From the NCBI GenBank assembly GCA_963555995.3, contig OY821641.1, positions 448,001-512,000 of the forward strand: a stretch of 64,000 bases of DNA, given 5' to 3'. A model generated the notes under the pieces. The model had not been told where the DNA came from, ran no database searches, and saw only the letters and a program-made list of their open reading frames with translations. Both the position numbers and the translations under genes were made by a program. This document shows positions 6,734 to 62,556 of the stretch, piece after piece. Each line of letters begins with the position of its first letter. Positions within the stretch are counted from its first letter, which is position 1. This DNA is from Vicinamibacteria bacterium (GTDB lineage Bacteria; Acidobacteriota; Vicinamibacteria; Marinacidobacterales; Marinacidobacteraceae).

Positions 6734-6736
6734 CTC

Positions 6737-7609: not shown

Positions 7610-7759
7610 GGGGCGAGCCTCGTCCCATCGGGGGTTGCCATCAAGAGCTGTTGAGGTGGTCCGGCAGGTCCGGCCAAGCCCGAAGGCCGCCGGACTGCAT
7701 GGTGCAGGCTCTATTCGTATCCCGCTCCGGCTCTGCCGTATCAACGGGCCGTTCGCTGC

Positions 7760-8146
7760 TTACGTCATCTCTGGATAGAGGTCGACGTGAACCGTGCGGT
7801 CTGCGTGGAGTGCTACCTCCAGAACTCGGCCCTTGATGTCCTCTTCCGCCAATCGGATCAGCGCGTGCTGAAACAGTCTTGTCTGCACGTCGAGGCTGTT
7901 CAGCCCGTGCGCCACGGTCACGCAGACCAAACCGGGATGCCCTTGCTCACGCTCCATCAGCGCCGTGAAGTCGGCGCTGTCGTTCGTGACCAGTACATAC
8001 CCGTCAGCCACCGCGCGTCGTACCAACGCCCAGTCCTGCCAGGCCCTCAGCCCGAGCCACGTCACGTGGGTGGATTGCGGGTATCCCCGCTCGCGCGCGA
8101 TGGTCGCCAAGTTGGGGCTGAGACACTCGTCGATCAGGAACTTCAC
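7760..8146 (-). CDS. DUF5615 PIN-like toxin (VapC45-like)
   Basis: GTG start overlapping the upstream stop (GTGA); KFLIDECLSP...HV...D.....A.....LVTNDSADF PIN-like motif. Confidence 0.85.
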   Translation of the reverse strand: MKFLIDECLSPNLATIARERGYPQSTHVTWLGLRAWQDWALVRRAVADGYVLVTNDSADFTALMEREQGHPGLVCVTVAHGLNSLDVQTRLFQHALIRLAEEDIKGRVLEVALHADRTVHVDLYPEMT

Positions 8147-8766: not shown

Positions 8767-8772
8767 TAATCT

Positions 8773-8788
8773 TTCCTCCGTAGAGGAA
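8773..8788. promoter_or_regulatory. Short palindrome over the antitoxin RBS (possible operator or RBS-sequestering hairpin)
   Basis: TTCCTC-CGTA-GAGGAA immediately upstream of ATG 8766 in an AT-richer patch. Confidence 0.3.
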
Positions 8789-8909
8789 GAAATAATAGCC
8801 GTACTGCCACGGCGATGCCAGGCGCCTTGTCGTCAAGCTCCCTCGCCTTGGATGGACGCCGCCGAGTGAACCGGCCCGCGATGTAGCAGCGCGCGGGGAC
8901 GGCGGCCTC

Positions 8910-9050
8910 TCAGCCGAGGCAGTGCTGACAGACGCCTGCGTCCCGCTTGTCGAGTTCCCGGAACTTCGCTTTGGCTTCCCGAAGCGAAGCGAAGGGACCG
9001 TGCCACCGGTTGTCCGGGCGCGTATCGGGCTTGCGGTTCCCGGCGCCACC
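8910..9050 (-). pseudogene. 3' remnant of a small CxxC-containing hypothetical gene
   Basis: Startless frame ...RKPDTRPDNRWHGPFASLREAKAKFRELDKRDAGVCQHCLG* with stop at 8910-8912. Confidence 0.35.
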
Positions 9051-9052
9051 GA

Positions 9053-9412
9053 CCGCGGCGCGTCGCGGCCGAGGAACTCGAAGCGTGCGGACCGCTTCCC
9101 CGGCAGAGCGGCGTATGCATCACGCACGGCCGACGCGTCCAGGCGGTCGAGATCTTCGGTGCGCCGAACCTCCTCCGCGCCTACTGGAGCGGCCTCGTCC
9201 GGGCGTATCTCGCGGACCCGGCCGCAACCCGGGACCGGCCCTCCGCCGAGCGCGCTCTCTGGGCCGTGCGCCGCCTGACCTGCATGGAGCTCAAGTCCGC
9301 GCCCGGACTCGGGCTCGGCACGGAAGTCCGGGCGGTGGACGACGTGCTGGCGGGAGTGGCGTTGCTCGTGGAAGGCGGCCTCGTCCACCAGAGCGCCCTC
9401 TTCGCCGGCTGA
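9053..9412 (+). pseudogene. C-terminal fragment of an ARPP-1/DUF6569-like protein (5' end missing)
   Basis: Frame +2 reads PLPRQSGVCITHGRRVQAVEIFGAPNLLRAYWSGLVRAYLAD...APGLGLGTEVRAVDDVLAGVALLVEGGLVHQSALFAG*; no start codon for the N-terminal part. Confidence 0.55.
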
Positions 9413-9436
9413 TCGGCCAAGGGCGGCGCGCACGTG

Positions 9437-9595
9437 TTGGAACGCCGGCTTCAGCCGGCACCGCGCGCCGAAGGCAGGCGGCGAGACGGACTTCATTCGC
9501 CGGGATGGCTCGGCTGCGCGCGCCCATGCACCTGGGGTAGCGACGCACCGCCCGCGCCCTGCGGGCCGCTGTGCCGGCTGAAGCCGGCGTTCCAA
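9437..9595. repeat. REP/REPIN-like element, family A, copy 1
   Basis: Perfect 25-bp terminal inverted repeats TTGGAACGCCGGCTTCAGCCGGCAC (9437-9461) and its complement (9571-9595); part of the interior resembles the copies at 42097 and 55782. Confidence 0.85.
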
Positions 9596-9709
9596 GCCGG
9601 CGGCGCCATCACGGCTTGTTGGCCGGCGGCTCCCAAGTTGGGTGAAGACCGCAGCGCCTCGCCTGGCTGATCGTGTGATCGGTATGCTGCGCTGAATGGG
9701 AGAGCATCC

Positions 9710-11335
9710 ATGGACCGAAGAGCATTCCTGAAGACCACCGCGGCCGGCGGGGCCGGCCTGACCGCGAACCTCGCGTGCGCTCCGCCCGGCTCCGAGACGC
9801 CATCGGGCGCCGGTGCGCAGGGCGAGGTTCCGGCGTTCGAGTTCGACGAGGTCACCGCCGCCGATCTTCAGCGGATGATGGAGTCGGGCGAGCACACCGC
9901 CCGTTCGATCACCGAGGCCTACCTCGGGCGTCTCGATGCTCTGGACCGGCAAGGTCCGGAACTGCGTTCGATGGTCGAGATCAACCCGGACGCGCTCGCG
10001 ATCGCGGACGAGCTGGATGCCGAGCGCGCCGCCGGCGGAGTTCGCGGGCCGCTGCACGGGATTCCCGTAGCGCTCAAGGACAACCTCGACACCCACGACC
10101 GGATGACCACCACGGCGGGATCGCTGGCGCTCGAGGGCTCCATCCCTCCGCAGGACTCCTTCGTGGCGGAGCGGCTGCGCGCTGCCGGCGCCATCCTCCT
10201 GGGCAAGCTCAACATGAGCGAGTGGGCCTACTTCCGGGGGGAGCGGGCGACCAGCGGCTGGAGCGCGCGGGGCGGCCAGTGCAAGAACCCCTACGCCCTG
10301 GACCGCAACCCGTGCGGGTCCAGTTCCGGCTCGGGAACGGCGGCCTCCGCGAACCTGTGCGCGCTGACCGTGGGCACCGAAACGGGCGGTTCCATCATGT
10401 GCCCCTCCTCCAGCAACGGCATCGTGGGCATCAAGCCCACGGTGGGGCTCTGGAGCCGCTCGGGCATCATCCCGATCTCGCACTCCCAGGACACCGCCGG
10501 TCCCATGACCCGCACCGTGCGCGACGCGGCCATCCTGCTCGGCAGTGCGGTGGGCGTGGACCCGCGCGACGAGGCCACCTCCGGTAGCGAGGGGAACTTC
10601 CACACCGACTACGCGCAGTTCTGCGACCCGGCGGGGCTCCAGGGGGCGCGCATCGGGGTGGCGCGCAGCTTCACCGGCTTCGATCCGCGGGTCACGGCGC
10701 TCTTCGACGACGCGATCCAGGCGATGGCGGACGCCGGAGCGGTGATCGTGGACCCCGCGAACCTCCCCGAGGCGGCGTGGAACGACGAGTTGCCGCTGCT
10801 CCTCCTCGAGTACGAGTTCAAGGCCGACCTGAACGCCTATCTCGCGACCCTGGGCCCGGACGCCCCGGTGGGCACCCTCGCGGAGATCATCGCGTTCAAC
10901 GAGGCGAACGCCGAGCTGGAAATGCCCCACTTCGGCCAGGAGCGCATGATCGCCTCCGAGGCCCGCGGTCCGCTGACCGACGAGGCGTACCTGAACGCAA
11001 AGCGAACCATCCAGCGCGCCAACCGGGAGGACGGGATTGACGCCCTCATGGACCAGCACGAGCTCGACGCCATCGTGGCGCCCACCCGCGACCTGCCGTG
11101 GGTCACCGACCACATCAAGGGCGACCGGCTGGACGGGGGCAGCAGCGCCGGACCGGCCGCCATCGCGGGCTACCCGGACATCAGCGTGCCGATGGGCTTC
11201 GTCTCCGGGCTGCCGGCGGGCGTGTCCTTCTTCGGGCGGGCGTGGAGCGAACCGGTGCTCATCCGCATCGCCTACGCCTACGAGCAGGCGACCCAGCAGC
11301 GCCGGGCGCCGACGTTCGCGCAGACGCTGGGATAG
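9710..11335 (+). CDS. Amidase (amidase-signature family), Tat-exported probable lipoprotein
   Basis: MDRRAFLK twin-arginine signal followed by LAC; LKDNL, CGSSSGS and GTETGGSI Ser-cisSer-Lys triad motifs. Confidence 0.92.
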   Translation: MDRRAFLKTTAAGGAGLTANLACAPPGSETPSGAGAQGEVPAFEFDEVTAADLQRMMESGEHTARSITEAYLGRLDALDRQGPELRSMVEINPDALAIADELDAERAAGGVRGPLHGIPVALKDNLDTHDRMTTTAGSLALEGSIPPQDSFVAERLRAAGAILLGKLNMSEWAYFRGERATSGWSARGGQCKNPYALDRNPCGSSSGSGTAASANLCALTVGTETGGSIMCPSSSNGIVGIKPTVGLWSRSGIIPISHSQDTAGPMTRTVRDAAILLGSAVGVDPRDEATSGSEGNFHTDYAQFCDPAGLQGARIGVARSFTGFDPRVTALFDDAIQAMADAGAVIVDPANLPEAAWNDELPLLLLEYEFKADLNAYLATLGPDAPVGTLAEIIAFNEANAELEMPHFGQERMIASEARGPLTDEAYLNAKRTIQRANREDGIDALMDQHELDAIVAPTRDLPWVTDHIKGDRLDGGSSAGPAAIAGYPDISVPMGFVSGLPAGVSFFGRAWSEPVLIRIAYAYEQATQQRRAPTFAQTLG

Positions 11336-48478: not shown

Positions 48479-50191
48479 ATGCGCGGGAAACGGCGAATTG
48501 CCCTGATCGGGATGGCCCCCCTGCTGGGTCTTCCCCTGCTGCTCGCACCCTCGCTGGACGGGCCCGCCGAAGGCGCCGGGATGAGCGTCAACGGGATGGT
48601 GGTGACCTCCCACCCGCTCGCGGCGCAGGCCGGGCTGCGGATGCTGCAGGCGGGCGGGAACGCGTTCGACGCGGCGGTGGCGAGCGCGGCCGTGAAGGCC
48701 GTCGTGGAACCGCTCATGTCCGGGCTGGGCGGGGTGGGCGGCTACGCGCTGATCCACGACGCCAAAACGGGAGACATCCGTTCGGTGGACTTCATCGGCG
48801 CGGCCCCGGCCGCCGCGGACCCCGAAGCGTTCACCGCCGGCAGCCGGCTCTGGGACCGGACCCATCCGGCCCGCGACAGTTTCCTGGCGCCGCTGGTGCC
48901 CGGCAACCTGGCCGGCTGGGCGGCGCTCCTCGAGGAGTACGGCTCGATGTCCTGGGCGGAAGTGCTGGCGCCCGCCATCGAGTACGCCGAAGACGGTTTC
49001 GCGGTGACCCCCGCGGTCAGCGGGCCGTTCGGGACGAGCGGCTTCGGCGCCGACGTGGCCCGCTACCCCTACGGCGCCGGCATCTTCTTCAAGGGCGGGA
49101 AGCCCTGGCCGGTGGGCGAGGTCCTGAAGCAGCCCGACCTGGCGAAGACCCTCCGGGCCATCGCGGCCGATGGGCCGGGGGTCCTCTACGGCGGGGCGAT
49201 GGCGGAGACGGTCGTGGACTTCTTCCGGCAGAACGGCGGCATCCTCACCGTGGAGGACTTCGCGAACTACCGGGCGCGCTGGAGCGAGCCGCTCTCGACG
49301 ACCTACCGCGGCTACACGGTGTACAGCCAGCCCCCCGGCGGTTCCGGGATGACGATCCTGCAGACCCTGAACATCCTCGAGCAGTTCGACGTGCCGGCGC
49401 TGGAGCACAACTCCGAGGAGTTCGTCCATCTGGTGGCGGAGGCGATGAAGCTGGCGTTCGTGGACGAGGACATCTGGAACACCGGCAAGGACTACGCCGA
49501 CATTCCGCTCGACCGGCTGCTCTCGAAGGAATATGCGGCGCAGCAGGCGGCGCGGATTGATCTTTCCCGGGCGCAGTTCCACGCCGCGGTCCGCGACGGG
49601 AGCGACCTGCCCACCGCGGTGGAGCACACCACGCACCACACGGTGGTGGACAAGGACCACAACGTGGTGACCATCACCCAGACGCTCATGCTCCCGGCGG
49701 GGGTGGTGGTCCCCGAGACCGGGGTCATCTTCAACAACGGGATGTCCTATTTCAGCCTGGACCCCGAGGACGTGAACCTCATCGAGGGCGGGCAGCGGCC
49801 CCGCTTCGTGATGAGCCCCACCATCGTGACCCGCTACGACAAGCCCTACTTCGCCCTCGGATCGGCGGGAGGCTGGACCATCCCGCAGACGATCCTGCAG
49901 GTGCTGGTGCGGGCGCTCGACTACGAGATGGACGCCCCGGCGGCGGTGGACGCGCCGCGTTTCGTGGTCCGCTACCTGGCGAACTCGATTCCCTACATGG
50001 ATGGGACCGATCTGGTGCTGGAGAAGGACTTCCCGGATGAGGTGCGGGAGGCGCTGAACGCCAGGGGGCATCGCCTGCGCGAGCCCCCCAACCGGATCGG
50101 GATGCTGAACGCGATCCGGATCGTTCCGGGCTCGGGAGTGCTTTCCGGGGGGCCGGACAAGCGCCGCGAGGGCGCCGCGGCGGGCTGGTGA
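48479..50191 (+). CDS. ggt: Gamma-glutamyltransferase family protein
   Basis: GGNAFDAAVA, VVEP.MSGLGG, VPG...GW, PPGGSG, nucleophile HTTH, GSAGG, PDKRREG. Confidence 0.9.
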   Translation: MRGKRRIALIGMAPLLGLPLLLAPSLDGPAEGAGMSVNGMVVTSHPLAAQAGLRMLQAGGNAFDAAVASAAVKAVVEPLMSGLGGVGGYALIHDAKTGDIRSVDFIGAAPAAADPEAFTAGSRLWDRTHPARDSFLAPLVPGNLAGWAALLEEYGSMSWAEVLAPAIEYAEDGFAVTPAVSGPFGTSGFGADVARYPYGAGIFFKGGKPWPVGEVLKQPDLAKTLRAIAADGPGVLYGGAMAETVVDFFRQNGGILTVEDFANYRARWSEPLSTTYRGYTVYSQPPGGSGMTILQTLNILEQFDVPALEHNSEEFVHLVAEAMKLAFVDEDIWNTGKDYADIPLDRLLSKEYAAQQAARIDLSRAQFHAAVRDGSDLPTAVEHTTHHTVVDKDHNVVTITQTLMLPAGVVVPETGVIFNNGMSYFSLDPEDVNLIEGGQRPRFVMSPTIVTRYDKPYFALGSAGGWTIPQTILQVLVRALDYEMDAPAAVDAPRFVVRYLANSIPYMDGTDLVLEKDFPDEVREALNARGHRLREPPNRIGMLNAIRIVPGSGVLSGGPDKRREGAAAGW

Positions 50192-50256
50192 CCTGCCTGC
50201 CCCGGCGTTCGTGGCTTCCGTTTCGGGACCCGTCGCCGCTGGAATACACTGGGCTC

Positions 50257-51798
50257 ATGGGGTTCGGGAAAGTCTCTCGCAGCGTTCGGAACCTGCCTGT
50301 CCCGGTGGCATTGGCGCTGGGCTGCGGACTCGTGTCCGTCGCGGGCGGCGGGTGCGCGCTCAGGGCCGCATCCCCCGCCCGGGAGGCGGCTCCCGAGCTA
50401 CCCGCCGACTTCGTCGAGAGCCCGGCAGCTGGCGCCCCTGAGGCGCAGGAGTGGTGGCGGGCGTTCAACGACCCGGCGCTCGACCAGGTGGTCGCATCGG
50501 TACTGGACTCCAACTTCTCCGTGGCGGAAGCGGTCGCGCGCGTCGAGCAGGCCAGAACGCGGGCCCGGCTGGCCGACGCGGCGATCCTCCCCAGTGTCGG
50601 CGCGAGCCTCACCGCGGAAACCTTCGACCTGCCCACGAATGCCGCGATCGGCGCGCAGCTCGAGGACCTGGGCCTCGATTTCCCTCTGCCCGACCGGTTG
50701 GGCTTCCCGACCTATACCCTGGGCGCGGACTTCGCCTACGAAGCCGATTTCTGGGGCCGCGTCCGGCACACCGCCCTCGCGGCGGGATCCGAGCTGCTGG
50801 CCTCGGAGTTCGACCTGCGGGTCGCCCGCATCGGGATCCTCGCCGAGACGATTTCGGTCTACTTCGAGATCGGCCACCTGCGGCAGCAACGCGCCATCGC
50901 CGGGCGGCAGGTGGAACTGCTCGAGGAACGCGAGCGGTTCGTCGCGAGCCGCTACGAACGCGGGCTCACGGCTTCCCTCGAGCTGCACGGCGTCCGCGAG
51001 GCCCTCTCCAGCGCGCGGGCCGGCGTGCCGCAGGTCGAGAACCAGCTCGCCGAGACGGAGTCCCGGCTCGCCGTACTGCTGGGAGGCTACCGGGAGGACG
51101 TCGCGGCGATCCTTCCCGACTCCCGGTCGCCGGAAACCCCGGCCGAACCCGTGCCGGCCGGCATTCCGGCCGACCTCCTTTCGCAGCGGCCGGACGTGCA
51201 GGCCGCAGGTCACCGGCTGGAAGCCGCCGGACACACCGTCGAAGCGCGGCGCGCGGCCCTGATGCCCCAGCTCTCGCTCTCCGGATCCATTGGACTGCGG
51301 AGCACGGACGCCGGAGGCCTTTTCGACGTCAAGCAGTGGTTCACGAACCTTGCCGGCAACCTGCTCCGGCCGGTGTTCGACGGCGGCCGGCTGGCGAGCG
51401 GCGTGGAACTTGCCGAAGCGCGCTTCGATGAGCTGGCGGCAGCCTACGGCCGGACCATCGTTACCGCGGTCAACGAGGTGGAAGCGGCCCTGGCAACCCT
51501 GAGGAACGAAGGCCGCCGGCAGGAATCTCTTGCCGCCCGCCACGAAGAGGCCCGGACGTCCGTGGAAGTGCAGGCCAGACGTTACGAGTCGGGCATCAGC
51601 GGCTATGGCGATCTGCTCGACGCCACCGCCGGACTGCTGGACGCGGAATTGGCGCTTGCGGGTTCGGAGCGGAACCTGGCCCTCGCCCGGCTGGCCATCC
51701 ACCGGGCCCTGGGGGGCGCGTGGGCCGGCCCGGACGCGATGGCCGGCGCTCCGGCGGGCGCACCGGACACCCGTGCGAAAGGACCGGCGGACCGATGA
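50257..51798 (+). CDS. RND outer-membrane factor (NodT/TolC-like lipoprotein)
   Basis: GGC lipobox, WWRAFNDPAL, YEADFWGR, PADLLSQRPDV, HRALGGAW. Confidence 0.92.
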   Translation: MGFGKVSRSVRNLPVPVALALGCGLVSVAGGGCALRAASPAREAAPELPADFVESPAAGAPEAQEWWRAFNDPALDQVVASVLDSNFSVAEAVARVEQARTRARLADAAILPSVGASLTAETFDLPTNAAIGAQLEDLGLDFPLPDRLGFPTYTLGADFAYEADFWGRVRHTALAAGSELLASEFDLRVARIGILAETISVYFEIGHLRQQRAIAGRQVELLEERERFVASRYERGLTASLELHGVREALSSARAGVPQVENQLAETESRLAVLLGGYREDVAAILPDSRSPETPAEPVPAGIPADLLSQRPDVQAAGHRLEAAGHTVEARRAALMPQLSLSGSIGLRSTDAGGLFDVKQWFTNLAGNLLRPVFDGGRLASGVELAEARFDELAAAYGRTIVTAVNEVEAALATLRNEGRRQESLAARHEEARTSVEVQARRYESGISGYGDLLDATAGLLDAELALAGSERNLALARLAIHRALGGAWAGPDAMAGAPAGAPDTRAKGPADR

Positions 51799-53015
51799 AT
51801 CGAACCAGGGGGTACGTCCTGGCGGCGATCATCCTGCTCGGATCGTTCGGGATCGCCACCCTGCTGATCGCGCAGCGGCCCGAGCCCGAGCGGCGCGAGC
51901 CTCCCTCCCCGATTCCGTTCGTCGTCACCTCCCCGGCGGCGGCGGGTTCCGGGTCGATTCCGGTCCATGGCGCCGGCACGGTCCGGCCACGCGAGCAGGT
52001 GGACGTGGCCGCCGGGGTGAGCGGACGGGTCGTGTGGGTGGATCCGGCTTTCGAGAGCGGCGGGCGGGTCAGCGAGGGCCAGGTGCTTTTCCGCCTCGAC
52101 GACAGCGACTACCGCCACCGGACCGAGCAGGCGCGATCCGGCGTCGCCGGGCAGCAGTTGGAGTTGCTGCGGGTCGAGGAGGAGGCCCGGATCGCCCGCG
52201 AGCAGTACGAAGCGTTCCAGAGCCGCCGCGGCGCCGCCGCCGGAGGTGCGAACGCGAGTCCGCTCGCGCACTGGGAGCCGCAACTCGAGGCGGCGCGGGC
52301 CGGCGTGGAACGGGCCGACGCCCTCCTGGCGGAAGCCGAACTCCTGCTCGCGCGGACGGCGGTGCTGGCGCCCTTCGACGCGGTGGTGCGTTCCGAGACC
52401 GTCGGCGTGGGGCAATTCGTGACCGCCGGAGTGGGGGTGGCGCAGATCTACGCGTCCGATGCGGTCGAGATCGTCGTCCCGCTGTCGGACGCCGAAGCGG
52501 CGCTCGTCCCGGGCCTGTGGGACCTGAGGCCGGGAGTCGCGGACCGCCGGGCGGCGGCCCGGGTCACTGCGGAATACGGCGCCGGCGCCTACGCCTGGGA
52601 GGGATATGTGGACCGGGTCGAGGCCGCGCTGGACGAAACGACGCGGACCCTCGACGTGATCGTGCGGGTTCCGAACCCTTTCGAGGGCGGCTCCCGGGTG
52701 GAAACCGGCGAGGCGGACGCAGACCCCGGATCTTCCGCCGGGTCCCCGCCACCGCTCCTGATCGGCCAGTTCGCGAACGTCGAGATAGCGGGGATCGCGC
52801 CGCAGGAGTACTTCCGGATAAGGCGGCTGGGGCTCCGACCGGGAAACGAGGTCTGGGCGGTGGACGGCGAGGCGGTGACCATCGTTCCGGTGCGCGTGTT
52901 GCAGCGCTTCGACGACACCGTGTACGTCACGGGTGGGTTGCGGGAAGGCCAGGACGTGGTGCTGACCGGGATCCAGTTCGCGACCGAGGGAATGAGGGTG
53001 CGCACGGCGGAGTAG
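51795..53015 (+). CDS. RND periplasmic adaptor (membrane fusion protein)
   Basis: N-terminal TM, GTVRP...VSGRV, APFDAVV, LDETTRT, LLIGQF; ATGA overlap with the OMF stop. Confidence 0.92.
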   Translation: MNRTRGYVLAAIILLGSFGIATLLIAQRPEPERREPPSPIPFVVTSPAAAGSGSIPVHGAGTVRPREQVDVAAGVSGRVVWVDPAFESGGRVSEGQVLFRLDDSDYRHRTEQARSGVAGQQLELLRVEEEARIAREQYEAFQSRRGAAAGGANASPLAHWEPQLEAARAGVERADALLAEAELLLARTAVLAPFDAVVRSETVGVGQFVTAGVGVAQIYASDAVEIVVPLSDAEAALVPGLWDLRPGVADRRAAARVTAEYGAGAYAWEGYVDRVEAALDETTRTLDVIVRVPNPFEGGSRVETGEADADPGSSAGSPPPLLIGQFANVEIAGIAPQEYFRIRRLGLRPGNEVWAVDGEAVTIVPVRVLQRFDDTVYVTGGLREGQDVVLTGIQFATEGMRVRTAE

Positions 53016-53048
53016 CGCTCCGACGCCGTTCGATCGCCTGCAAGTTAA

Positions 53049-53227
53049 CAGCCCGTGGTGAAACCCACGCGAGCGCCGAGAGCGGTGAGGCGCCCGGCTG
53101 ACAAGGCGCGTGAGGGAGGAATACCGGGTGTATTCCGACCGAAACGCAACGATGAGCGCCTCGTAGAGGCGCGGTTCAGGCGGGATGCATCGCCGCTCGA
53201 ACGCCGCGTGGGTTTTGCCACAGGCTG
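53049..53227. mobile_element. MITE family B, 179 bp, full copy 2
   Basis: IRs CAGCCCGTGGTGAAACCCACGCG / CGCGTGGGTTTTGCCACAGGCTG; flanks TTAA and TTGA; internal GGAATAC..GTATTCC hairpin. Confidence 0.85.
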
Positions 53228-53291
53228 TTGAATCCGTCGGGGTGGGACGGGAGCATCCGCGAGCCTTCCGCGAGAATGCCGCTCGGTACGC

Positions 53292-54320
53292 ATGAGTGAA
53301 GGCGCGCTCCCCCCGTTCCCGGAGGGTTGGTATTTCGTCGCCACCCGAGCGTCCCTGGAGAAGGCGAAGCTCATCCAGAAGACGTGGATGGGACAGGACA
53401 TCGTTGCCTGGTGCGACGACGCCGGCAGGGTCTCCGTGGCCGAGTCGGTCTGTCCGCACCTCGGGTCCGAACTGGGACCCGTCGCCGGCGGCCGGGTGCG
53501 CGACGGCCGTCTCGTCTGTCCCTTCCACGGCTACGAGTTCGACGCCAGCGGCCAATGCGTCGCCACTCCCTTTGCCCCGCCGCCGAAGACCGCGAAGCTG
53601 AAGTCCTTCGAGACCCGGGAGGTTCTCGGCATCGTCTTCGCCTGGTGGGGCGCCGGTGGACGGCCCCCGCGGTGGCGCCTCCCGGAAGACCCGCCGGCCG
53701 GAGCCGACTGGTGCCGACCGGCGTTCCGGACTCTCCGGTTTCGGGGGCACCCTCAGGAAACGAGCGAGAACGCCGTGGACATGGCGCACCTGCGGTACGT
53801 GCACGGCTACGGCAACGTCGGCCGGGTCGGAAAGGTGACCGTGGACGGCGCGCAGCTCGTGAGTTCCTTTGACTTCAAGCGCACCCAGAGCGTCGTCGGG
53901 ATCGCGAATCTCACTTTCGACGTTTCCGCGACCGCCCACGTCGTCGGGCTCGGGTATTCCTTCGTGGAGTTCCGCGAACGCTCCATTGGCATGGACGGGC
54001 GTCTGTGGGTGCTTGCGACGCCCGTGGACGGCACCCTCATTGACCTGGTGCTGGTCAGCCAGTTTCGGCAACTGCGGAAGCCGAAACGGCCGATCGTCGG
54101 CTTGCGGTTCCTCCCGCTGACGCTTCGCACGCGGGTCATGAACGCGTTGATGCTGACTTTTCAGAAACACGACGTCCTGCAGGACGTGGAGATCTGGAGC
54201 CGGAAACGGTACCGGTCGCGGCCGAGCCTCTCCCGGTCCGACGGTGAGATCGGAATGTACCGGCGCTGGTGCAAGCAGTTCTACGCAGAACCGGGAACAC
54301 CCGAGCTCACGCCGTCCTGA
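53292..54320 (+). CDS. Rieske non-heme iron oxygenase, Neverland (cholesterol 7-desaturase)/KshA-like
   Basis: PPFPEGWY; CPHLG...CPFHG Rieske cluster; ENAVDMAHLRYVH Fe site; C-terminal QDVEIWSRKRY...DGEIGMYRRWCKQFY. Confidence 0.85.
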   Translation: MSEGALPPFPEGWYFVATRASLEKAKLIQKTWMGQDIVAWCDDAGRVSVAESVCPHLGSELGPVAGGRVRDGRLVCPFHGYEFDASGQCVATPFAPPPKTAKLKSFETREVLGIVFAWWGAGGRPPRWRLPEDPPAGADWCRPAFRTLRFRGHPQETSENAVDMAHLRYVHGYGNVGRVGKVTVDGAQLVSSFDFKRTQSVVGIANLTFDVSATAHVVGLGYSFVEFRERSIGMDGRLWVLATPVDGTLIDLVLVSQFRQLRKPKRPIVGLRFLPLTLRTRVMNALMLTFQKHDVLQDVEIWSRKRYRSRPSLSRSDGEIGMYRRWCKQFYAEPGTPELTPS

Positions 54321-55677
54321 AGCGCCAGCCGTACATCACCCGTCCGTAGAAGTTGAACCACTTCCTGGCCTCGGGGTCGTCGAACGGGTATTCCGCGCCG
54401 AGCTGCCTCGCCGTAACGAGGCCGGACACGAAACAGGTCTCCTGGCTGTTGATCAGGGTGTGCGCGCCGCAGTGCCAGGTCCGCCGCTTTCCCTGGACGA
54501 AGCGAAAGATCTGCGTCAGAAAGGCCACGTGACGCACGTCGTGGACGATGTGCTGAAACCACCACTTGCTGACGATCTTGTTGTCGGCGATCCGACTGAT
54601 CGGGTTGTAGGTCACGAGACACGGCTTGTCCGACTTCTTCGCCCACGGCTGCTGGTTGTGCATGATGTAGGTGATTTCGTAGTTGTCCGGCCGCGCGCCG
54701 TACTGCTGGATGTGGTTGCTCCGGGTGGCGAGGGGCCTGACTTCGCTGTCGGGGAGGACCGAGGCGTCCGAATGGACGACCGTGTGGTTGTGCAGTTCGC
54801 TCTCGTAGCGGACCTGTGAGAGGAGCCAACCCTCCAGCCGGGTCGGCCGGTCGAGGAGCATCAGCGTCTGGTTCGCGTTGCACGCGAAAACGACGTCATC
54901 GAACGTCTCCGCCGTTCCGTTCTCATCTTCCACGACGACGTCGTACCGGCGCCGGTGAACCTTTCGCACCGGCCGGTTCAGGTAGATCCTGTCGCGAAAC
55001 GACGCCGACAGCTCCCGATAGATCCGTCGGGTTCCCTGGTCCCACGTCTGCATCGGCGTCGCGGTCTCGATGTCGAAGAAGTCCAGGTAGCGGGAAAACA
55101 GCGACGCCGGCATGTCGAACACGTTCGTCGCCATCAGGAAGTTGACGAACATGGGTTTCAGGATCTTGTAGCGGAAGTCTCCCGAGTACCGGCCCAGGTT
55201 CAGCAGGGCGCCCATGCTGACGTAGTTGAACGGATTGAGGGCGCCGAGCAGTTTGGACCGGGACAGGTTGAGGCGGCCGAACCATTGAAGGCGCCGCAGC
55301 AGCCGCTGGAACCTCCGGATTTCCGGTTGCAACTGCCTCCGGATGTCGGAGTCGAAGTCGTGGGCATAGATTTCGCCCCGATACTTCACGCTGTAGTTGA
55401 ACCGGGTGGCGACCAGTTCGATCCCGTGCTGCTGCATGAACAGGACGAAGTGGTGGTATGCCGACGGAATGCACGCGGTCACTGAAATGTCGAACGGGAT
55501 CGCGCCGCCGCCGTCCTGGGGCATTTCGGCGGTGATCGCATTGCCGCCGAGCTGGGCCTGCGCTTCGAACAGTCGGAAATCGAAGCGGTCCGGATGCTGG
55601 TTGAGCGCCCACGCCACTCCGAGTCCCGAAACGCCCCCGCCGACGATGGCGATCCGCCGCGGCTTCGCTGCACCCAT
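54307..55677 (-). CDS. FAD-dependent oxidoreductase (COG2907/amine-oxidase-like, probably lipid-modifying)
   Basis: IAIVGGGVSGL dinucleotide motif, FEAQAQLGGNA, FDDVVFAC, VVHSD, LVTYNP, QGKRRTWHCGA...SQE...SG. Confidence 0.82.
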   Translation of the reverse strand: MGAAKPRRIAIVGGGVSGLGVAWALNQHPDRFDFRLFEAQAQLGGNAITAEMPQDGGGAIPFDISVTACIPSAYHHFVLFMQQHGIELVATRFNYSVKYRGEIYAHDFDSDIRRQLQPEIRRFQRLLRRLQWFGRLNLSRSKLLGALNPFNYVSMGALLNLGRYSGDFRYKILKPMFVNFLMATNVFDMPASLFSRYLDFFDIETATPMQTWDQGTRRIYRELSASFRDRIYLNRPVRKVHRRRYDVVVEDENGTAETFDDVVFACNANQTLMLLDRPTRLEGWLLSQVRYESELHNHTVVHSDASVLPDSEVRPLATRSNHIQQYGARPDNYEITYIMHNQQPWAKKSDKPCLVTYNPISRIADNKIVSKWWFQHIVHDVRHVAFLTQIFRFVQGKRRTWHCGAHTLINSQETCFVSGLVTARQLGAEYPFDDPEARKWFNFYGRVMYGWRFRTA

Positions 55678-55781
55678 GTTTTCTACTCTACCGTCGCGGG
55701 CGGCCGCCTCGTCCCCACCGGAAGAAGACCCCCATGATCGGGTCCTCCCGCACACCCCGCCGGTCATGAGAATTGCGGAAA

Positions 55782-55992
55782 CGGCTTGGAGCGCCGGCTT
55801 CAGCCGGCACCCGCTGCGCGGAGCGCAGCGGAACGGCGTACGGCTCCTGCCCGCATGGCGCGTGGGCAGGCGAGGCGGCTCCAAAGAACTGGTGGCCGGC
55901 GTTCCCGGCCTTTGCGCCATCCGGGCGGATGAGGTCCTTCCCGCCGCCCGCCTGCGGCGGGCTGTGCCGGCTGAAGCCGGCGTTCCCAGCCG
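55782..55992. repeat. REP/REPIN-like element, family A, copy 3 (inverted relative to copy 2)
   Basis: CGGCTTGGAGCGCCGGCTTCAGCCGGCAC ... GTGCCGGCTGAAGCCGGCGTTCCCAGCCG; whole interior matches the reverse complement of 42097-42308. Confidence 0.88.
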
Positions 55993-56223
55993 TTGGACCC
56001 TCACGGCTGTTGGCGGACCCGCACGGGACTGCATCTTCACAGCAACCGGGCCGGCGGCGCCATCACGGCTCCGAGGTGGACCCCCGAAGTAGCACTTTGG
56101 CGACGACTCGCCGCGCTCGGCGCTCGTGGAGGTTTCCCCGCCGGCTGGTAGAATTCCCGCCGGACAATCCGGAGGGGGCCGGTGGGCATGGCCTCAAGCC
56201 GCTCGATCCGGATGTCGAAGACC

Positions 56224-58245
56224 ATGAGCGAGGCCACCCGGTTCCCGATCCGAATCGCCGAGGAGTTGATCCTCCTCATGCTGGACGAGAAGAGCGGCTA
56301 CCTGGAGATGGTTCCGAACTGGGACTTTTCCTGTGTCATGGCCGGGGCCGTGCTCGCCGATCTGGCCCTGGAGCGTCGCATCGAGACCGACCTGGAGCGG
56401 TTGTACCTGGTCGATCCCACACCGACCGGAGACGAGTTGCTCGACCCGACGCTCAAGGACATCGCCGAATCCGATGAAAAATCGGACGCTCAGTTCTGGA
56501 TCGAACGGAACACCCGCCACGCCGACGAAATCGTCGCGACCGCCCTCGACCGCCTGGTGGAGCGGAACATCCTCACCCACGAGCACGGCGGATTCTGGGG
56601 GCTCTCGCGCTCCGTCGCCCGTTCGGGGACTTTCCCGACCCAGGCTGTCGAGACCCGCAGGGAATCCAAGGCGAGGATCCTGAGCGTCATCCTGCACGAC
56701 GAGATCCCGGACCCGCGGGACGCCATCCTGGTCGCCCTGATGCACACCTGCGGCGGCTTCAAGCTGCGGCTGGAGCAAGAAGACTACGAAGAGCGGCTCG
56801 CCCGGATCGAGCTCGTGGCCAGGCTGGACCTCATCGGACGGACGGTCGCGGCCGCCGTGCAGGACAGCACGGCGAAGCCCAAGACCCGTCGCGTGGTTCA
56901 GACCAAGCCCATTCCCAAGCTTGGGTATCTCAACGTACTGCTACAGCGTGATTTCCTCTCGGGCAACATCCCGAAGGCGATGTACGGCATTTACCGAAGA
57001 CACGGGCCGGTCGTCAGAATGCCCTTCAAGATCCGCGGCGCGCCCGTGGTTTCGGTGATGGGTCCCGATGTCAATCACTGGGTCAACCGGCACGGGCGGT
57101 TCTATCTCCGCTCGAAGGACTACATCGAAGGGCTGGAGCACGCGTTTGGCGCGTCCCGGAGCATGCCCGGCATGGATGGCGCGGAACACTATCGAATGCG
57201 CAAGGAACTCCAGTCTGCGTATTCCCGCGCCACGCTGGCGCAGCGGTTGCCGGAACTGATCCACGACTGCCGGAAATCACTGAGTCGTTGGAAGGAAGGA
57301 GATGTCTTCCGCGCCACCGAGAGCTTTCAGAACCACATCAGCAGTCAGATCTCGCATTTCGCGATGGGAGTGGATTGCAGCAGCTATGTGGACGAACTGT
57401 TGACTTTCGAACACCGGGCTCTGGTAACGCAGGTCCAGGGCGCATTGCCGGGTTTCATGCTGTCCACCCCAAGAATGAAACGGTACGGGAAGCGAGTCAG
57501 GGAACTCCAGGAGGCGATCACCGCGGCGCATACCACAGCGCAACGTAAGGGAAAGCCCAGGGATCTGGCCGACGCGATTCTCGATCTCCACAAGAGGGAT
57601 CCGCAGTTCCTTCCCGAAACGGACCTCACGTTTCCCTTCGTGGCGTCCATGGTCGCCAGCATCTATATGGGCAGTGCGTTGGCCTTCGCCATTTACAACA
57701 TGGTTCGAAACCCGGACGTGTACGCGAGGGTCCGGAGCGAAGCCGAGTCGCTCTTCGGCAACGGCCGTGGACTGGGAGGAGATGACTTCAATCACGAGAG
57801 CGTTGATGTCACGGTGCGTCTCTGCATGGAATCCTCGCGCATATACCCGGTGATTCCCTGGCAGTTGAGAACGGTCATGAACGAGTGCATCGTCAGTGGT
57901 TACGAGATACCGCCGAAGACGATGTTGCTGATCTGCCAGACGGCGCCGCACTATGCCGGGGACCTGTACCGGGATCCGTTGAAGTTCGATATAGACCGGT
58001 ACCTGCCGGACCGGGCCGAACATCTGCAACCGGGCGCCTACGCGCCCTACGGCCTCGGTACGCACATGTGCCTCGGCCACCGGTGGGTGGAACTTCAGAT
58101 GGCCGTCAACGTCCTGCTCATCGCGCGCCACCTGGAGCTCGAAGTGGTGCCCGGCAACTACCGGATGGGAATCAATCCGTTCCCGACCCTGGCCCCCAAC
58201 AGGAAACTGAAGTTCCGCGTCGCCCAGATCCCGAATCCCTTGTGA
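56224..58245 (+). CDS. GPP34 (GOLPH3/Vps74-like) - cytochrome P450 fusion protein
   Basis: N-terminal about 215 aa IAEELILLMLDEKSG...AGAVLADLALERRI...DPTPTGDELLD...DRLVERNIL (GPP34-like); C-terminal P450 with ESSR, FDIDRY and YGLGTHMCLG; single open frame; start could be 56182-56224. Confidence 0.82.
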   Translation: MSEATRFPIRIAEELILLMLDEKSGYLEMVPNWDFSCVMAGAVLADLALERRIETDLERLYLVDPTPTGDELLDPTLKDIAESDEKSDAQFWIERNTRHADEIVATALDRLVERNILTHEHGGFWGLSRSVARSGTFPTQAVETRRESKARILSVILHDEIPDPRDAILVALMHTCGGFKLRLEQEDYEERLARIELVARLDLIGRTVAAAVQDSTAKPKTRRVVQTKPIPKLGYLNVLLQRDFLSGNIPKAMYGIYRRHGPVVRMPFKIRGAPVVSVMGPDVNHWVNRHGRFYLRSKDYIEGLEHAFGASRSMPGMDGAEHYRMRKELQSAYSRATLAQRLPELIHDCRKSLSRWKEGDVFRATESFQNHISSQISHFAMGVDCSSYVDELLTFEHRALVTQVQGALPGFMLSTPRMKRYGKRVRELQEAITAAHTTAQRKGKPRDLADAILDLHKRDPQFLPETDLTFPFVASMVASIYMGSALAFAIYNMVRNPDVYARVRSEAESLFGNGRGLGGDDFNHESVDVTVRLCMESSRIYPVIPWQLRTVMNECIVSGYEIPPKTMLLICQTAPHYAGDLYRDPLKFDIDRYLPDRAEHLQPGAYAPYGLGTHMCLGHRWVELQMAVNVLLIARHLELEVVPGNYRMGINPFPTLAPNRKLKFRVAQIPNPL

Positions 58246-58312: not shown

Positions 58313-61300
58313 ATGAGTTCCGATCCAGGCAGCCACGCCGAGCCCGGCGGACCGATCGCCTACATGGCGAGTAACGGCGTCGCTTCCAATCTCCTGATGT
58401 TCAGCATCCTCGCGGTGGGCCTCGTGTCGCTGACCGGCCTCGAGCAGGAAGGGTGGCCCACGGTTCCCTTCAACCAGTTCGAGGTCTCGGTGCCGTTCCC
58501 CGGCGCCACGCCCGAGGAGGTCGAGGAGGCCATCGTCGTCAAGATCGAGGACGAGGTCAGGGGGCTGGCGGACGTGAAGACGGTCCGGTCCATAGCGGCC
58601 CCGGGGATGGCGTCCGTCAGGGTCGAAGTCAACTCGGGTACGGACATGGGCGCCAAGAAGGATGAAATCGAGGCGGCGGTCGGGCGGATCCAGACGTTCC
58701 CGGGCGGGGCCGAACGGCCCCAGATCCGGGAAATGACGAACGCGCAGAGCATGATGCGCCTCGTCCTCTACGGCGACGTTCCCGAGCGCTCGCTGAAGGA
58801 GCTCGCCTACCGGATCGAGGACGATCTCGCCGCGCTTCCGAACGTGTCCCAGGTCGAGATCAGCGGCGTGCGCAACTACGAGATCTCGATCGAAGTGCCG
58901 CTCGAGCGCCTGCGGGCCCTCGGGCTCACGTTGGCCGACATCGCCAACACGGTTCGCCGCGGTTCCCTGGACCTGTCCGCGGGCAGCATTGATACCGACC
59001 GGTCCCAGGTGCGGATTCGGACCCTGGGTCAGAGCCACGACCAGCAGGACTTCGAGGACATCATCATCCTCGGCCGCGCCGACGGCACGGCGGTCCGCCT
59101 GGGCGACATTGCCGAGGTGCGCGACGGCTTTCAGGACTCCGGTCTGATCGTCCGGCACGAGGGCCACCCCGCCGTGTTCGTCGAGGTCTCGCGCGCCGAT
59201 GGCGAGAGGGTGATGGATGTGGCGCGCGCTGTTCGCGACTACGTCACGAGCGAACTGGCCCCCTCGCTCCCGGACGGCGTGGGCATCAGCATCTGGAACG
59301 ACGACTCCTCGGCCTTTGTGGAGCGCGGCGTCCTTCTCCTCAAGAATGGAGCTCTGGGGTTGTTGCTGGTCCTGCTCGCGCTGGGTCTGTTTCTCCAGCT
59401 CCGGCTGGCGTTCTGGGTCGCCGTCGGTCTTGGCGTTTCCGGGATCGGCGCGCTCGCCGCCATGCTGGTGTTCGACATCCCGCTCCATGCGGTGTCGCTC
59501 TTCTCCTTCGTGCTCGCCATCGGCATCGTCGTGGACGATGCGATCGTGGTGTCCGAGCACATCCACCTGGAACGAAAGCGCGGCACGCCGGGGGTCGTTG
59601 CGGCGATCCGGGGGGCGCGGCGCATCAGGGTGCCGCTGATCTTCGCGGTGCTGACGACGATGGTGGCGTTCCTTCCACTGCTCTTCATACCTGCGGGGTT
59701 CGGCGAGGTCTGGAAGGCGCTGCCGATCATCGTCATCGCCATGCTGCTGATTTCGCTGGTCGAATCGCTGCTGGTGCTGCCGAACCATCTGTCCCATCAT
59801 CTGCATGGCCCGGACTGGGCGCCCCGGACGGGCGTGGAACGATTCGTCGCGCGGATCCAGAATCGTGTCGATTCCCTGTTGAACCGCTTCATCCAGGGAC
59901 CCCTGGACCGCGGGATCCAGTTCGCGGCGGACTGGCCCGGAGTGACGGTTTCGGGGGCCGTCGCGCTGCTTGTCCTGAGCATTTCCCTCCTGCCGGCCGG
60001 CATCGTCCCCGCCACCTTCGCCACGGAAGTCGAAGGTGACTTCGCCATCGCCACCCTCGAAATGCCGGACGGAACGACCGCGCCGCAGACGTACGCCGTG
60101 GCGGAGCAACTCGAAGCGGCCGGCCGCCGGGCGGTGGAGCGGCTTTCCGAGGAACGACCGGCCGATGCGCCTCCGCTACTTTCCGGGGTTACCGTCGTCA
60201 TCGGCCAGCGGTCGCGCGTCGAGACTGGGGGTCTCAACCCCTCGCCCACCCTGAACCCGGAGGCCAACGTCGCGACCATCGAGTTCAAGCTCCTGAGCGC
60301 GCAGCAGCGGCGCATCACTTCGGGAGAGGTCGTGCAGGCATGGCGCGAGGAGGCGGGCGAACTGCCTCAGGCGCGCGCGGTCACCTACATCAGCCAGATC
60401 TACACGCTGGGCAACCCGGTCGAGGCGGCGCTGTCCCACCCGGATCCGGAGCGCCTCAACGAGATCGCGAACTCCACCGTCGCCGGGCTCGGCGGAGTCG
60501 GGGGCGTCTTCGACATCCGCTCGGACCACACGCCCGGGGTGCCGGAAATCCAGGTGGGAATGCTCCCCGAAGCGCGCACGCTCGGTCTCACGCTGGACGA
60601 TCTGGCCCGGCAGACGCGAGCCGCCTTCTTCGGCGCCGAGGCCGTCCGGGTACAGCGAGGACGCGACGAGGTTCGGGTTTACGTGCGGCTACCCGAGGAG
60701 CAGCGCGACTCGATTACCGATATCGAGGGCTACCGGCTCTCGACGCCCGCCGGCGCCGACGTGCCGGTCAGCCGTGTGGCCGCGCTGCGTTCCGGCACCT
60801 CCCCACCGGCCATCCGGCGCCAGGACGGCCAGCGCGTCGTCACGGTGAGCGCCGATGTGGATCCCGGGGTGGTTTCCGCCGGGACCGCCAACGACATTCT
60901 GGAGAACACCATCCTGGCGGGACTCGTCGCCCAGAACCCGGAACTCACGTACACGTTCGGAGGGGAGCAGCAGCAGCAGCTCGACTCCCTGGGCGGTCTC
61001 TATCGCGGATTCGCGATCGCGCTGCTCCTGATCTTCGCGCTGCTGGCCATTCCCCTGCGCTCCTACACCAAGCCGTTCATCGTCATGGCCATCATCCCGT
61101 TCGGGTTTGTCGGCGTGATCCTGGGTCACTGGATGCTGGGGGTCGCCGTCAGCGCGGAGTCCTTCGTCGGGATCTTCGGGCTCGCCGGGGTGGTCGTCAA
61201 CGATTCCCTGGTGATGATTGATTTCACCGACCGGAAGCTCCGCGATGGAGTCCCCGTGCGAACGGCGATCATCGAGGGCGCGAAGGGACGCTTCCGTCCG

Positions 61301-61501
61301 ATCATGCTGACTTCCCTGACGACCTTCCTGGGCTTCACCCCCCTGATTCTCGAGGACGCGATTCAGGCGCAGTTCTTCGTTCCCTTCTCCGCCTCGATCG
61401 GCTGCGGCATCCTTTTCACCACGGCGCTCATCATGTTCCTGGTGCCCGCGCTCTCCTCGATCCACCTGCGGCTGACTTCGGCGCAGGGCCGCGCGGGTTA
61501 G
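58313..61501 (+). CDS. RND efflux permease (AcrB/AcrD/AcrF family)
   Basis: PGATPEEVEEAI, GIVVDDAIVVSE, GVVVNDSLV, RFRPIMLTSLTT; 1062 aa. Confidence 0.95.
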   Translation: MSSDPGSHAEPGGPIAYMASNGVASNLLMFSILAVGLVSLTGLEQEGWPTVPFNQFEVSVPFPGATPEEVEEAIVVKIEDEVRGLADVKTVRSIAAPGMASVRVEVNSGTDMGAKKDEIEAAVGRIQTFPGGAERPQIREMTNAQSMMRLVLYGDVPERSLKELAYRIEDDLAALPNVSQVEISGVRNYEISIEVPLERLRALGLTLADIANTVRRGSLDLSAGSIDTDRSQVRIRTLGQSHDQQDFEDIIILGRADGTAVRLGDIAEVRDGFQDSGLIVRHEGHPAVFVEVSRADGERVMDVARAVRDYVTSELAPSLPDGVGISIWNDDSSAFVERGVLLLKNGALGLLLVLLALGLFLQLRLAFWVAVGLGVSGIGALAAMLVFDIPLHAVSLFSFVLAIGIVVDDAIVVSEHIHLERKRGTPGVVAAIRGARRIRVPLIFAVLTTMVAFLPLLFIPAGFGEVWKALPIIVIAMLLISLVESLLVLPNHLSHHLHGPDWAPRTGVERFVARIQNRVDSLLNRFIQGPLDRGIQFAADWPGVTVSGAVALLVLSISLLPAGIVPATFATEVEGDFAIATLEMPDGTTAPQTYAVAEQLEAAGRRAVERLSEERPADAPPLLSGVTVVIGQRSRVETGGLNPSPTLNPEANVATIEFKLLSAQQRRITSGEVVQAWREEAGELPQARAVTYISQIYTLGNPVEAALSHPDPERLNEIANSTVAGLGGVGGVFDIRSDHTPGVPEIQVGMLPEARTLGLTLDDLARQTRAAFFGAEAVRVQRGRDEVRVYVRLPEEQRDSITDIEGYRLSTPAGADVPVSRVAALRSGTSPPAIRRQDGQRVVTVSADVDPGVVSAGTANDILENTILAGLVAQNPELTYTFGGEQQQQLDSLGGLYRGFAIALLLIFALLAIPLRSYTKPFIVMAIIPFGFVGVILGHWMLGVAVSAESFVGIFGLAGVVVNDSLVMIDFTDRKLRDGVPVRTAIIEGAKGRFRPIMLTSLTTFLGFTPLILEDAIQAQFFVPFSASIGCGILFTTALIMFLVPALSSIHLRLTSAQGRAG

Positions 61502-62556
61502 TCCTGATCGGCAGGCCGGCGCGCCACGAAACAGTAGAGCGGCGTGAAGATCCCCGTCCTGCCCCCCGCGACGTAGGCGTTCGCGGTCCGGTCCAGGAGC
61601 GCGACCACCTCCGCCGAACCCTTCGGGAACATGCCGAGGAACTCGGCGATCCGGATCCCCCACCGCAGCGCCTTGCGGCCCAGCGGAATCCGGCGGAAAG
61701 CGCTGCCGGGCAGCCCGCGCTGCGTTTCCATGGGCTGATACCACGGCGTCTCCGCACTGCCCTCGTGGACGGCGAGGTCCGTACCCTCCACGACTTCGAA
61801 TCCCGCGGTTTCGAGCGCCCGGTTCACCTCCCCGAACGTTGCGATGTCCTTGAGCGCGATGCCGTGCCTGAGCTCCCGTTCGATGGCGCGGTGCCGGCCG
61901 TTCCCGGGGTCGTACAGCTCCGTCATGCACATTTCCTGACCCCAGAGGAGGGCTCCGGGTTTCAGGACCCGGTAGATCTCGGCGAACGCGCCCGCCTTGT
62001 CGGCCGCGTGGCAGGTTGATTCGATCGCGTAGCCGCGGTCGAAGGTCCGGCCCGCGATCTCGCCCATGTCCATGAAGCTGCACCGGAGCAGATCGGTCCG
62101 GGCATCGAGCCCCGCGGCGGCGTTCAGCCGCCTGGCCTTGTTGCACTGGACCTCACTGGCGTTGATCCCGACAACCCGGACTCCGGCCTCCCGGGCGACG
62201 CGGCGCATCGGACCGCCGATCCCGCAGCCGACATCAACCACCGTCATCCCCGGCCGCAGTTCGAGCTTGGAGATCATGAGTCGCTGGTGCCGGATCTTGG
62301 AGTCCTCCAGACTCTCGCCGGGCGACAGCGGCGCGAAGTGCAGGGATTCTCCCCAACCCCAGACCATGAACGCGGTACAGAGGTCGTAGTACTCCTGGAC
62401 CGTCCGTGCGTGGTCGTACCCCTCGTCGGCGCCATCCTCCCGGGATGCCCTGCCGGTCCATCCTTCGAGGTCCCGTACCCGGCTCGGGACGTCCGATCCT
62501 GCGAACGCGGTCTTGAGCCCATCGGACAGTTCACGAATGTCCCGCGTGAGCTTCAT
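61498..62556 (-). CDS. Sterol C-24 methyltransferase-like (ERG6/SMT family) SAM-dependent methyltransferase
   Basis: YYDLCT.FMVWGWGESLHFAP (region I), VDVGCGIGGP (II), YAIESTCHA (III), EIYRVLKPG (IV), PWY, C-terminal GGRTGIFTPLYCFVARRP. Confidence 0.87.
   Translation of the reverse strand: MKLTRDIRELSDGLKTAFAGSDVPSRVRDLEGWTGRASREDGADEGYDHARTVQEYYDLCTAFMVWGWGESLHFAPLSPGESLEDSKIRHQRLMISKLELRPGMTVVDVGCGIGGPMRRVAREAGVRVVGINASEVQCNKARRLNAAAGLDARTDLLRCSFMDMGEIAGRTFDRGYAIESTCHAADKAGAFAEIYRVLKPGALLWGQEMCMTELYDPGNGRHRAIERELRHGIALKDIATFGEVNRALETAGFEVVEGTDLAVHEGSAETPWYQPMETQRGLPGSAFRRIPLGRKALRWGIRIAEFLGMFPKGSAEVVALLDRTANAYVAGGRTGIFTPLYCFVARRPADQD

Follow-up and report, generated by a model that had tools for sequence, protein, structure and literature searches.

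The GPP34-P450 fusion gene and its neighbors

The window, by which we mean the whole stretch of 64,000 nucleotides that was analyzed, carries a single uninterrupted reading frame of 673 amino acids, with an ATG start and a TGA stop, that joins a GPP34 domain to a cytochrome P450. Surrounding this gene are those for an outer-membrane factor, an adaptor, a Rieske/KshA_C oxygenase, an FAD oxidoreductase, an RND permease, and a Sterol_MT_C methyltransferase, which together are here called the cassette. The features are listed below, each with its evidence in parentheses.

50188..51798, forward strand: outer-membrane efflux protein of the NodT/TolC type, cassette member (Pfam, neighborhood comparison)
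51798..53015, forward strand: RND periplasmic adaptor, cassette member (Pfam, neighborhood comparison)
53292..54320, forward strand: Rieske oxygenase with KshA_C domain, cassette member (Pfam; KshA, E 7e-27)
54307..55677, reverse strand: FAD oxidoreductase related to LkcE and linoleate isomerase, cassette member (Pfam, PDB relatives)
56224..58245, forward strand: GPP34-cytochrome P450 fusion gene, 673 aa, 'Y-type' clade (frame, Pfam, homologs, AlphaFold2)
56254..56865, forward strand: GPP34/GOLPH3-like domain, residues 11-214, acidic, PI4P residues not kept (Pfam, profile alignment)
56572..56604, forward strand: predicted beta-hairpin, residues 117-127, with F124-W125, aligned to the membrane-inserting hairpin region of GOLPH3 (model, alignment)
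56866..56919, forward strand: basic linker and proline hinge, P231 invariant (alignment; pLDDT 66 at 221-230)
56935..58164, forward strand: P450 domain, Pfam 238-647, ExxR E536/R539, heme Cys616 (Pfam, alignment, fold match)
57655..57672, forward strand: I-helix segment A478-G483 with a one-residue deletion, Tyr481 replacing the acid-threonine pair (alignment)
58313..61501, forward strand: AcrB-family RND permease, cassette member, 67 bp downstream of the fusion (Pfam, neighborhood comparison)
61498..62556, reverse strand: sterol methyltransferase-like gene (Sterol_MT_C), divergent subfamily M81/L89/I249, cassette member (Pfam, alignment)

The spacer between the flavoenzyme and fusion genes is about 545 bp, compared with about 180 bp in relatives, and holds a palindromic intergenic repeat (55715-56060) whose core occurs at about 260-290 places in the genome. 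This repeat probably belongs to a REP-like family, and it accounts for a spike in read depth. A second repeat of about 185 bp (53045-53230), with about 110 copies (the best 94-97% identical) that are in some cases arranged head to tail, lies between the adaptor and Rieske genes. Another P450 match in the window is located at 5554-5844 (G000:C1:453554-453844; E 4e-13). A scan for promoters and terminators returned nothing above chance.

An earlier note, made from the sequence alone, had read the frame as GPP34 plus P450 joined by a basic linker, and profile searches bear this out by matching both domains on the same protein. Pfam GPP34 (PF05719) aligns to residues 11-214 (E 3e-33; 116 bits compared with a cut-off of 29.1) over profile positions 1-200 of 201, and Pfam p450 (PF00067) aligns to residues 238-647 (E 2.6e-33). 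The linker TAKPKTRRVVQTKPIPK is likewise present, with six K/R and one D/E in residues 212-232. A search of 5.8 billion proteins returned at least 120 near-full-length homologs at 68-91% identity, and both Pfam domains are present in all homologs among these listed matches. Because most of the listed homologs are 671-675 aa long and align from residue 1, position 56224 is the right start, and an upstream GTG start at 56182 offered by the ORF lister was rejected. Furthermore, single contigs bridge the junction at 56850-56950 in all four runs examined, which come from two studies (X1, 56592-57887; X2, 56592-56986; X3, 56665-56986; X5, 56646-57871). Given these contigs and the homologs carrying both domains, we rejected misassembly, and the fusion is confirmed as real. 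An AlphaFold2 model built with 128 sequences has a mean pLDDT of 85.9 and a pTM of 0.81, and a search of the ESM Atlas returned generic P450 clusters only.

The genome that contains the window (G000) comprises 3.8 Mb in two contigs, is 93% complete, and encodes one copy of the fusion; its nearest relatives are Vicinamibacteria-type Acidobacteriota MAGs, and run X5, labeled as a sponge metagenome, holds a related strain. In RNA run X23, a contig of a related strain covers 56210-57870, and a contig skips exactly the repeat at 53045-53230. This run was rejected as evidence for expression, since the depth is flat (about 13-20 over most listed pieces) and one contig appears to cross gene boundaries, making DNA carry-over possible.

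The architecture itself is already known. Ferreira et al. 2025 (Microbiome 13:4; PMC11706023) named the fusion form GPP34_L, assigned 656 of 663 long GPP34 proteins to it, found it only in sponge symbionts, and proposed that it is a secreted PI4P-binding effector. GPP34_L proteins have the identical architecture, are 620-700 aa long, and occur in many phyla including Acidobacteriota, a description that the 673-aa window protein fits. The earlier note describes bacterial GPP34 proteins as usually stand-alone, which overstates the case for sponge symbionts: about 48% of theirs (656 of 1381) are this fusion (PMC11706023). The note also named prior characterization of the architecture as something that would refute it, and this largely applies, although the published description is not biochemical. 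The sections of the paper covered here contain neither an I-helix split nor a test of PI4P residues, and the literature searched yielded no further relevant paper. Its main text lacks the words 'sterol', 'RND', and 'operon', and its spreadsheet supplement lacks 'sterol'; the flanking-gene figure S11 lies outside this scope and may bear on the matter.

The I-helix deletion clade and its gene cassette

The P450 had also been described as complete, which is accurate for the fold, the ExxR motif (E536, R539), and the heme ligand (Cys616), the latter residues being present in 128 of 128 aligned sequences. The description fails at the I-helix, which is one residue short relative to both CYP46A1 and the canonical sister clade and carries Tyr481 in place of the acid-threonine pair. 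The domain is complete in fold and heme ligand and yet non-canonical, in that the I-helix acid-alcohol pair is missing. The fold is best matched by CYP46A1 (Z 37.0, 418 residues aligned, rmsd 3.1), CYP51 (Z 36.7), and CYP184A1 (Z 36.1), but these top scores are tied and do not separate sterol enzymes from those acting on fatty acids or retinoids, and identity to the structural matches is only 16-20%. Sterol P450s also provide the best sequence match (E 7e-21). CYP46A1 and CYP51 nonetheless differ from the window P450 in that they are only 17-19% identical to it and have an intact I-helix motif, and a CYP51-like sequence falls outside the family in our tree.

Among 63 family P450 domains from fetched loci, counted after removal of twelve duplicate loci and of fragments under a score/length cut, 49 (including the window copy) are of the deletion type, with a gap plus Tyr (His once), and 14 are canonical. 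The 21 deletion-type rows of a 39-row tree obtained by a quick IQ-TREE search form one clade with an SH-aLRT value of 100. Phyla are interleaved within this clade, which points to horizontal spread. No report of an I-helix deletion that removes the acid-alcohol pair was found in the open-access literature searched. Precedents exist for substrate-assisted or peroxide-driven P450 chemistry, and the loss of the threonine suggests that the deletion-type enzymes might use one or the other.

Loci L010, L015, and L070 each hold two deletion-type GPP34-P450 paralogs from different subclades in one cassette (motifs ASI-Y, AAI-Y, and AGH-Y), which suggests that coexisting paralogs catalyze sequential reactions. 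Broken copies attributable to decay or sequencing error are present in L019:3818-4864, L033, L046, L052, and L001:9120-9826; in one case a transposase interrupts the fusion, in others a stop or frameshift splits it, and one flavoenzyme is fragmented. We also rejected a 1148-aa triple-domain form in L098, because its first 500 codons have a non-coding GC phase (GC3 of 0.57 compared with 0.94) and no Pfam match.

The cassette genes are found again in Acidobacteriota, Gammaproteobacteria, Gemmatimonadota, and Chloroflexota, where their order and orientation vary, and are about 50-90% identical even between phyla. Within stretches of 12-22 kb around the fusion, at least one of the genes for the sterol methyltransferase (SMT), the Rieske oxygenase, and the flavoenzyme is found at 44 of 46 deletion-type loci compared with none of 14 canonical loci, and a pump is found at 44 of 46 (33 RND, 11 MMPL) compared with one of 14; about 13 of the 46 deletion-type loci are close kin, and these counts are therefore not independent and are given with no P value. 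Counted singly at the 46 loci, the SMT is present at 28, the Rieske at 36, and the flavoenzyme at 31, leaving 18 loci that lack the SMT and 15 that lack the flavoenzyme. The fusion adjoins the RND gene in many loci, and in Chloroflexota an MMPL protein with a sterol-sensing domain match replaces it. Four further deletion-type loci all have an RND gene and at least one of the enzymes. Five further canonical copies have none of the three enzymes; pump subunits lie near some of them, and in G574 pump subunits at 63% identity are also found near canonical copies.

At the level of whole genomes, 51 have a fusion at 40% identity or above; 39 of these encode a cassette-type SMT (at least 59% identity) and the other 12 lack it, as do all 29 genomes without a fusion. 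These 80 genomes were chosen by a P450 search and include non-independent kin; the clade was assigned by identity rather than motif for eight Gemmatimonadota genomes and the fragmentary G091, and the broken fusion copies of G021 and G218 were counted as 'without'. The cassette includes no ferredoxin or reductase gene, and the genome has six Fer2-domain matches.

Both the non-canonical I-helix and the conserved cassette had escaped the earlier note, and it is this deletion clade and its cross-phylum cassette that appear to be new here. Neither was found in the open-access literature searched, a scope beyond which lay the supplementary PDF of PMC11706023 and preprint supplements.

The GPP34 domain as a candidate membrane anchor

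When the PDB is searched with a profile made from 24 N-terminal domains, both human GOLPH3 (E 1e-16) and yeast Vps74 (E 1e-13) are matched, a kinship given by sequence profile matching, as the full-length fold search reported the P450 part only. Relative to GOLPH3/Vps74 (PDB 3KN1, 9QPQ, 2ZIH), the domain is homologous over its whole length and has a predicted hydrophobic hairpin at the equivalent place, but it lacks the N-terminal coatomer-binding extension and is fused to an enzyme. GOLPH3 binds PI4P through R90, R171, N172, and R174 and inserts its hydrophobic hairpin into the membrane (10.1101/2025.06.26.661719). In the profile alignment, the window protein has A40, D101, E102, and V104 at these positions, such that none of the four PI4P residues is kept, with a register that is less sure for R171 and N172, which follow a 10-residue gap, than for R90 and R174. 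Across 128 aligned fusions, no basic residue is among the commonest ones at positions 40, 101, and 102, and R occurs at position 104 in only three. On the basis of this mapping, we rejected a PI4P pocket in the domain, and the parallel with GOLPH3 and Vps74 drawn in the earlier note is lost with it. Its broader proposal, membrane docking of the P450 or delivery of a lipid substrate to it, still describes the most plausible role, and the gene neighborhood supports a lipid substrate, namely a sterol.

Several features are compatible with membrane docking by other means. First, predicted strands 117-120 and 124-127 form a hairpin in the AlphaFold2 model that displays F124 and W125, which are present in 125 and 121 of the 128 aligned fusions, respectively, although the sequence is unlike the FLLFD of GOLPH3. 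Second, the basic linker leads into an invariant proline, P231, through a segment of lower model confidence (pLDDT 66 for residues 221-230). Third, no N-terminal transmembrane helix was found, and no N-terminal stretch is among the top hydropathy windows, the most hydrophobic of which is the I-helix. The domain itself is acidic (pI 4.7 for residues 1-215), and docking would therefore rest on the two aromatic residues and the linker. Microsomal P450s are laid out as an N-terminal membrane anchor, a linker, a proline hinge, and a catalytic domain. Because the fusion has the same order of parts and no N-terminal transmembrane helix, the GPP34 domain most likely serves as a peripheral membrane anchor for the P450. 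All four cassette enzymes look soluble.

A proposed sterol substrate and its alternatives

Functional SMTs share 25 conserved residues (10.64898/2025.12.19.695621), and the cassette SMT, when positions are placed by motif spacing from the published numbers, keeps 24 of them and deviates with L at F89. Such deviations occur in seven of 11 SMTs that were inactive in published assays (10.64898/2025.12.19.695621), and the cassette SMT may, by this comparison, be inactive on standard substrates. M81, L89, and I249 are present in 28 of 28 copies and set these proteins apart as a subfamily of their own, whereas three OSC-adjacent SMTs that are 40-43% identical to the cassette SMT carry Y81, F89, and D/N249. 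The protein also fails the rule for propylating SMTs, which is G249 with F81 and/or F83 (10.64898/2025.12.19.695621), as it has I249, M81, and W83. No SMT structure was among its PDB matches, and supplement 1 of Brown et al. (PMC10070321) contains no match to an SMT motif of the cassette type. The best PDB match of the Rieske protein is the steroid 9-alpha-hydroxylase KshA (E 7e-27), and its gene is the sole KshA_C match in the genome.

The cassette shares its SMT family, and probably its sponge-symbiont carriers, with bacterial sterol 24-C-methyltransferases and the de novo sterol clusters of sponge symbionts, and SMTs outside biosynthetic clusters have been noted in this literature (PMC10070321; 10.64898/2025.12.19.695621; PMC9531527). 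It differs from de novo clusters in having no cyclase, CYP51, or ERG24. The readable supplements of Brown 2023 (PMC10070321) do not mention P450, Golgi, GPP34, Rieske, or efflux. Since an OSC-type cyclase was found in only five of 51 carriers, and no cyclase was found in G000, the substrate probably originates in the host or in symbionts that make sterols. Such symbionts are documented in Ircinia (PMC9531527) and Aplysina (PMC10070321).

Relatives outside the cassette are found in other sterol and triterpene settings. Among 72,556 plasmids, the P450 relative with the lowest E value (8e-40; nine records matched) lies in a de novo sterol cluster of Planktothrix. This protein (WP_227398350.1, Planktothrix agardhii plasmid p2, NZ_LR882940.1) nests inside the family (SH-aLRT 99) and is encoded near an OSC-type cyclase, squalene synthase, epoxidase, ERG24, EBP, and three KshA_C Rieske genes about 30% identical to the cassette Rieske, but it is unfused, keeps the acid-threonine pair, is 26% identical to the window P450, and is itself uncharacterized. 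The plasmid-borne cluster (L093:11557-34123) also holds several P450s and a carbamoyltransferase. A comparable cluster has been described in Calothrix, with no function given for such a P450 in the part of that paper covered (PMC10202945). Other plasmid relatives of the Rieske gene adjoin polyketide genes. In G650, a canonical fusion lies in one run with a sulfotransferase and a squalene-hopene-type cyclase, making this run a candidate sulfated-triterpenoid cluster; the canonical gene, with its frame split near the start, is followed by an efflux pump and a second GPP34-P450 (L099:14089-19466 and 3204-11188), and a MamK-like actin gene (L099:12301-13332; 368 bits, below the NCBIfam cut-off of 400) lies inside. 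G043, which carries the cassette, also has a sterol cluster (L041:15227-19995 and L042:16-3384) with a squalene epoxidase-cyclase fusion and CYP51-like, ERG24, SdmA-, and SdmB-like genes, and a stand-alone GPP34 gene is located about 7 kb away with a transposase between. Sterol neighbors are mostly absent around stand-alone P450 relatives (four Chloroflexota/Gammaproteobacteria loci) and stand-alone GPP34 loci.

Taken together, these comparisons lead us to favor, by a little over an even chance, the hypothesis that the fusion is a non-canonical P450 that works within the bacterial cell, docked on a membrane, and tailors sterols that are imported and then exported again. The GPP34 domain would replace the N-terminal anchor of microsomal-type P450s, with the FW hairpin gripping the bilayer. 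The host or another symbiont would make the sterol that serves as substrate, because most carriers have no oxidosqualene cyclase. The threonine-less P450 would then act on a sterol that has already been modified, with the substrate's own hydroxyl or a peroxide supplying the proton chemistry, and the pump would export the product. The LkcE-like flavoenzyme could supply H2O2, but not as an obligatory partner, since its gene is missing from 15 of 46 loci.

An unlikely alternative, though the one that survives best, is that the lipid modified by the cassette is no sterol but, for instance, a phospholipid acyl chain or another isoprenoid, which would undergo double-bond methylation, flavin-dependent isomerization or desaturation, and oxidation. 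Pathways to furan and methyl-branched fatty acids combine methylation at a double bond, flavin-dependent isomerization or desaturation, and oxidation. The flavoenzyme has LkcE and linoleate isomerase as its best solved relatives, and its distant relatives adjoin DUF1365 genes, which mark a fatty-acyl context. The SMT also scores on CMAS and is divergent in the sterol-binding Region I. Against this stand its Sterol_MT_C match and 24 of 25 SMT residues, together with the KshA_C Rieske and the family members within sterol and triterpene clusters.

We consider it slightly less likely again that the substrate is a sterol but that GPP34, in place of anchoring the protein to a membrane, is a protein-docking or oligomerization module whose partner is the pump, the SMT, or an electron donor. 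GOLPH3 is a coat adaptor that takes cargo via an acidic face and dimerizes via its hairpin (10.1101/2025.06.26.661719), GPP34 is also fused to Rieske and ABC domains (PMC11706023), the N-domain here is acidic, and the pTM of 0.81 suggests a defined packing on the P450. The position of GPP34 ahead of a basic linker and proline hinge, with a conserved FW hairpin, fits such a module less well.

That the heme domain is no oxidase at all, and instead binds, senses, or carries sterols to supply the pump, appears improbable to us. The acid-threonine pair is lost with the deletion, the cassette has no redox partner, and the fusion lies next to RND genes in many loci, all of which would suit this role. 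However, the heme cysteine and ExxR never vary among the aligned sequences, P450s can be active even when the threonine is missing, and the occurrence of two or three subclades in single cassettes fits distinct reactions.

The published proposal is that bacteria secrete GPP34 proteins as PI4P-binding effectors, which would keep phagosomes in sponge cells from maturing. It agrees with their restriction to symbionts and reported expression in a sponge metatranscriptome (PMC11706023), and with our detection of the family in eight of 201 sampled Acidobacteriota genomes, but for this protein it is very improbable, as no PI4P residue is kept (R174 in only 3 of 128 aligned fusions), no T3SS (FliP/SctR), T4SS (VirB4), or T6SS (TssC) core gene was found in the 93% complete G000, the N-terminus has no stretch among the top hydropathy windows, and the neighbors are metabolic.

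The hypothesis of a membrane-docked P450 that tailors imported sterols would give bacterial GPP34 domains a testable job besides the published PI4P-effector idea, and the deletion marks a P450 clade with an unusual active site. The oldest claimed animal biomarkers rest on the unusual side-chain sterols of demosponges (PMC10070321), and if the cassette alters host-derived sterols, it bears on which organisms make these side-chain sterols. One can speculate further, as a long shot, that a mobile module, common to sponge symbionts from many phyla, remodels host sterols and returns them. The SMT with M81/L89/I249 would in that case fill the role of the missing C-26 methyltransferase or of some other new side-chain methylase, and the I-helix-deleted P450 would represent a new mechanistic class. 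If this were true, the unusual demosponge sterols of the aplysterol type, which are the source of the 26-methylstigmastane biomarker, would be partly bacterial products.
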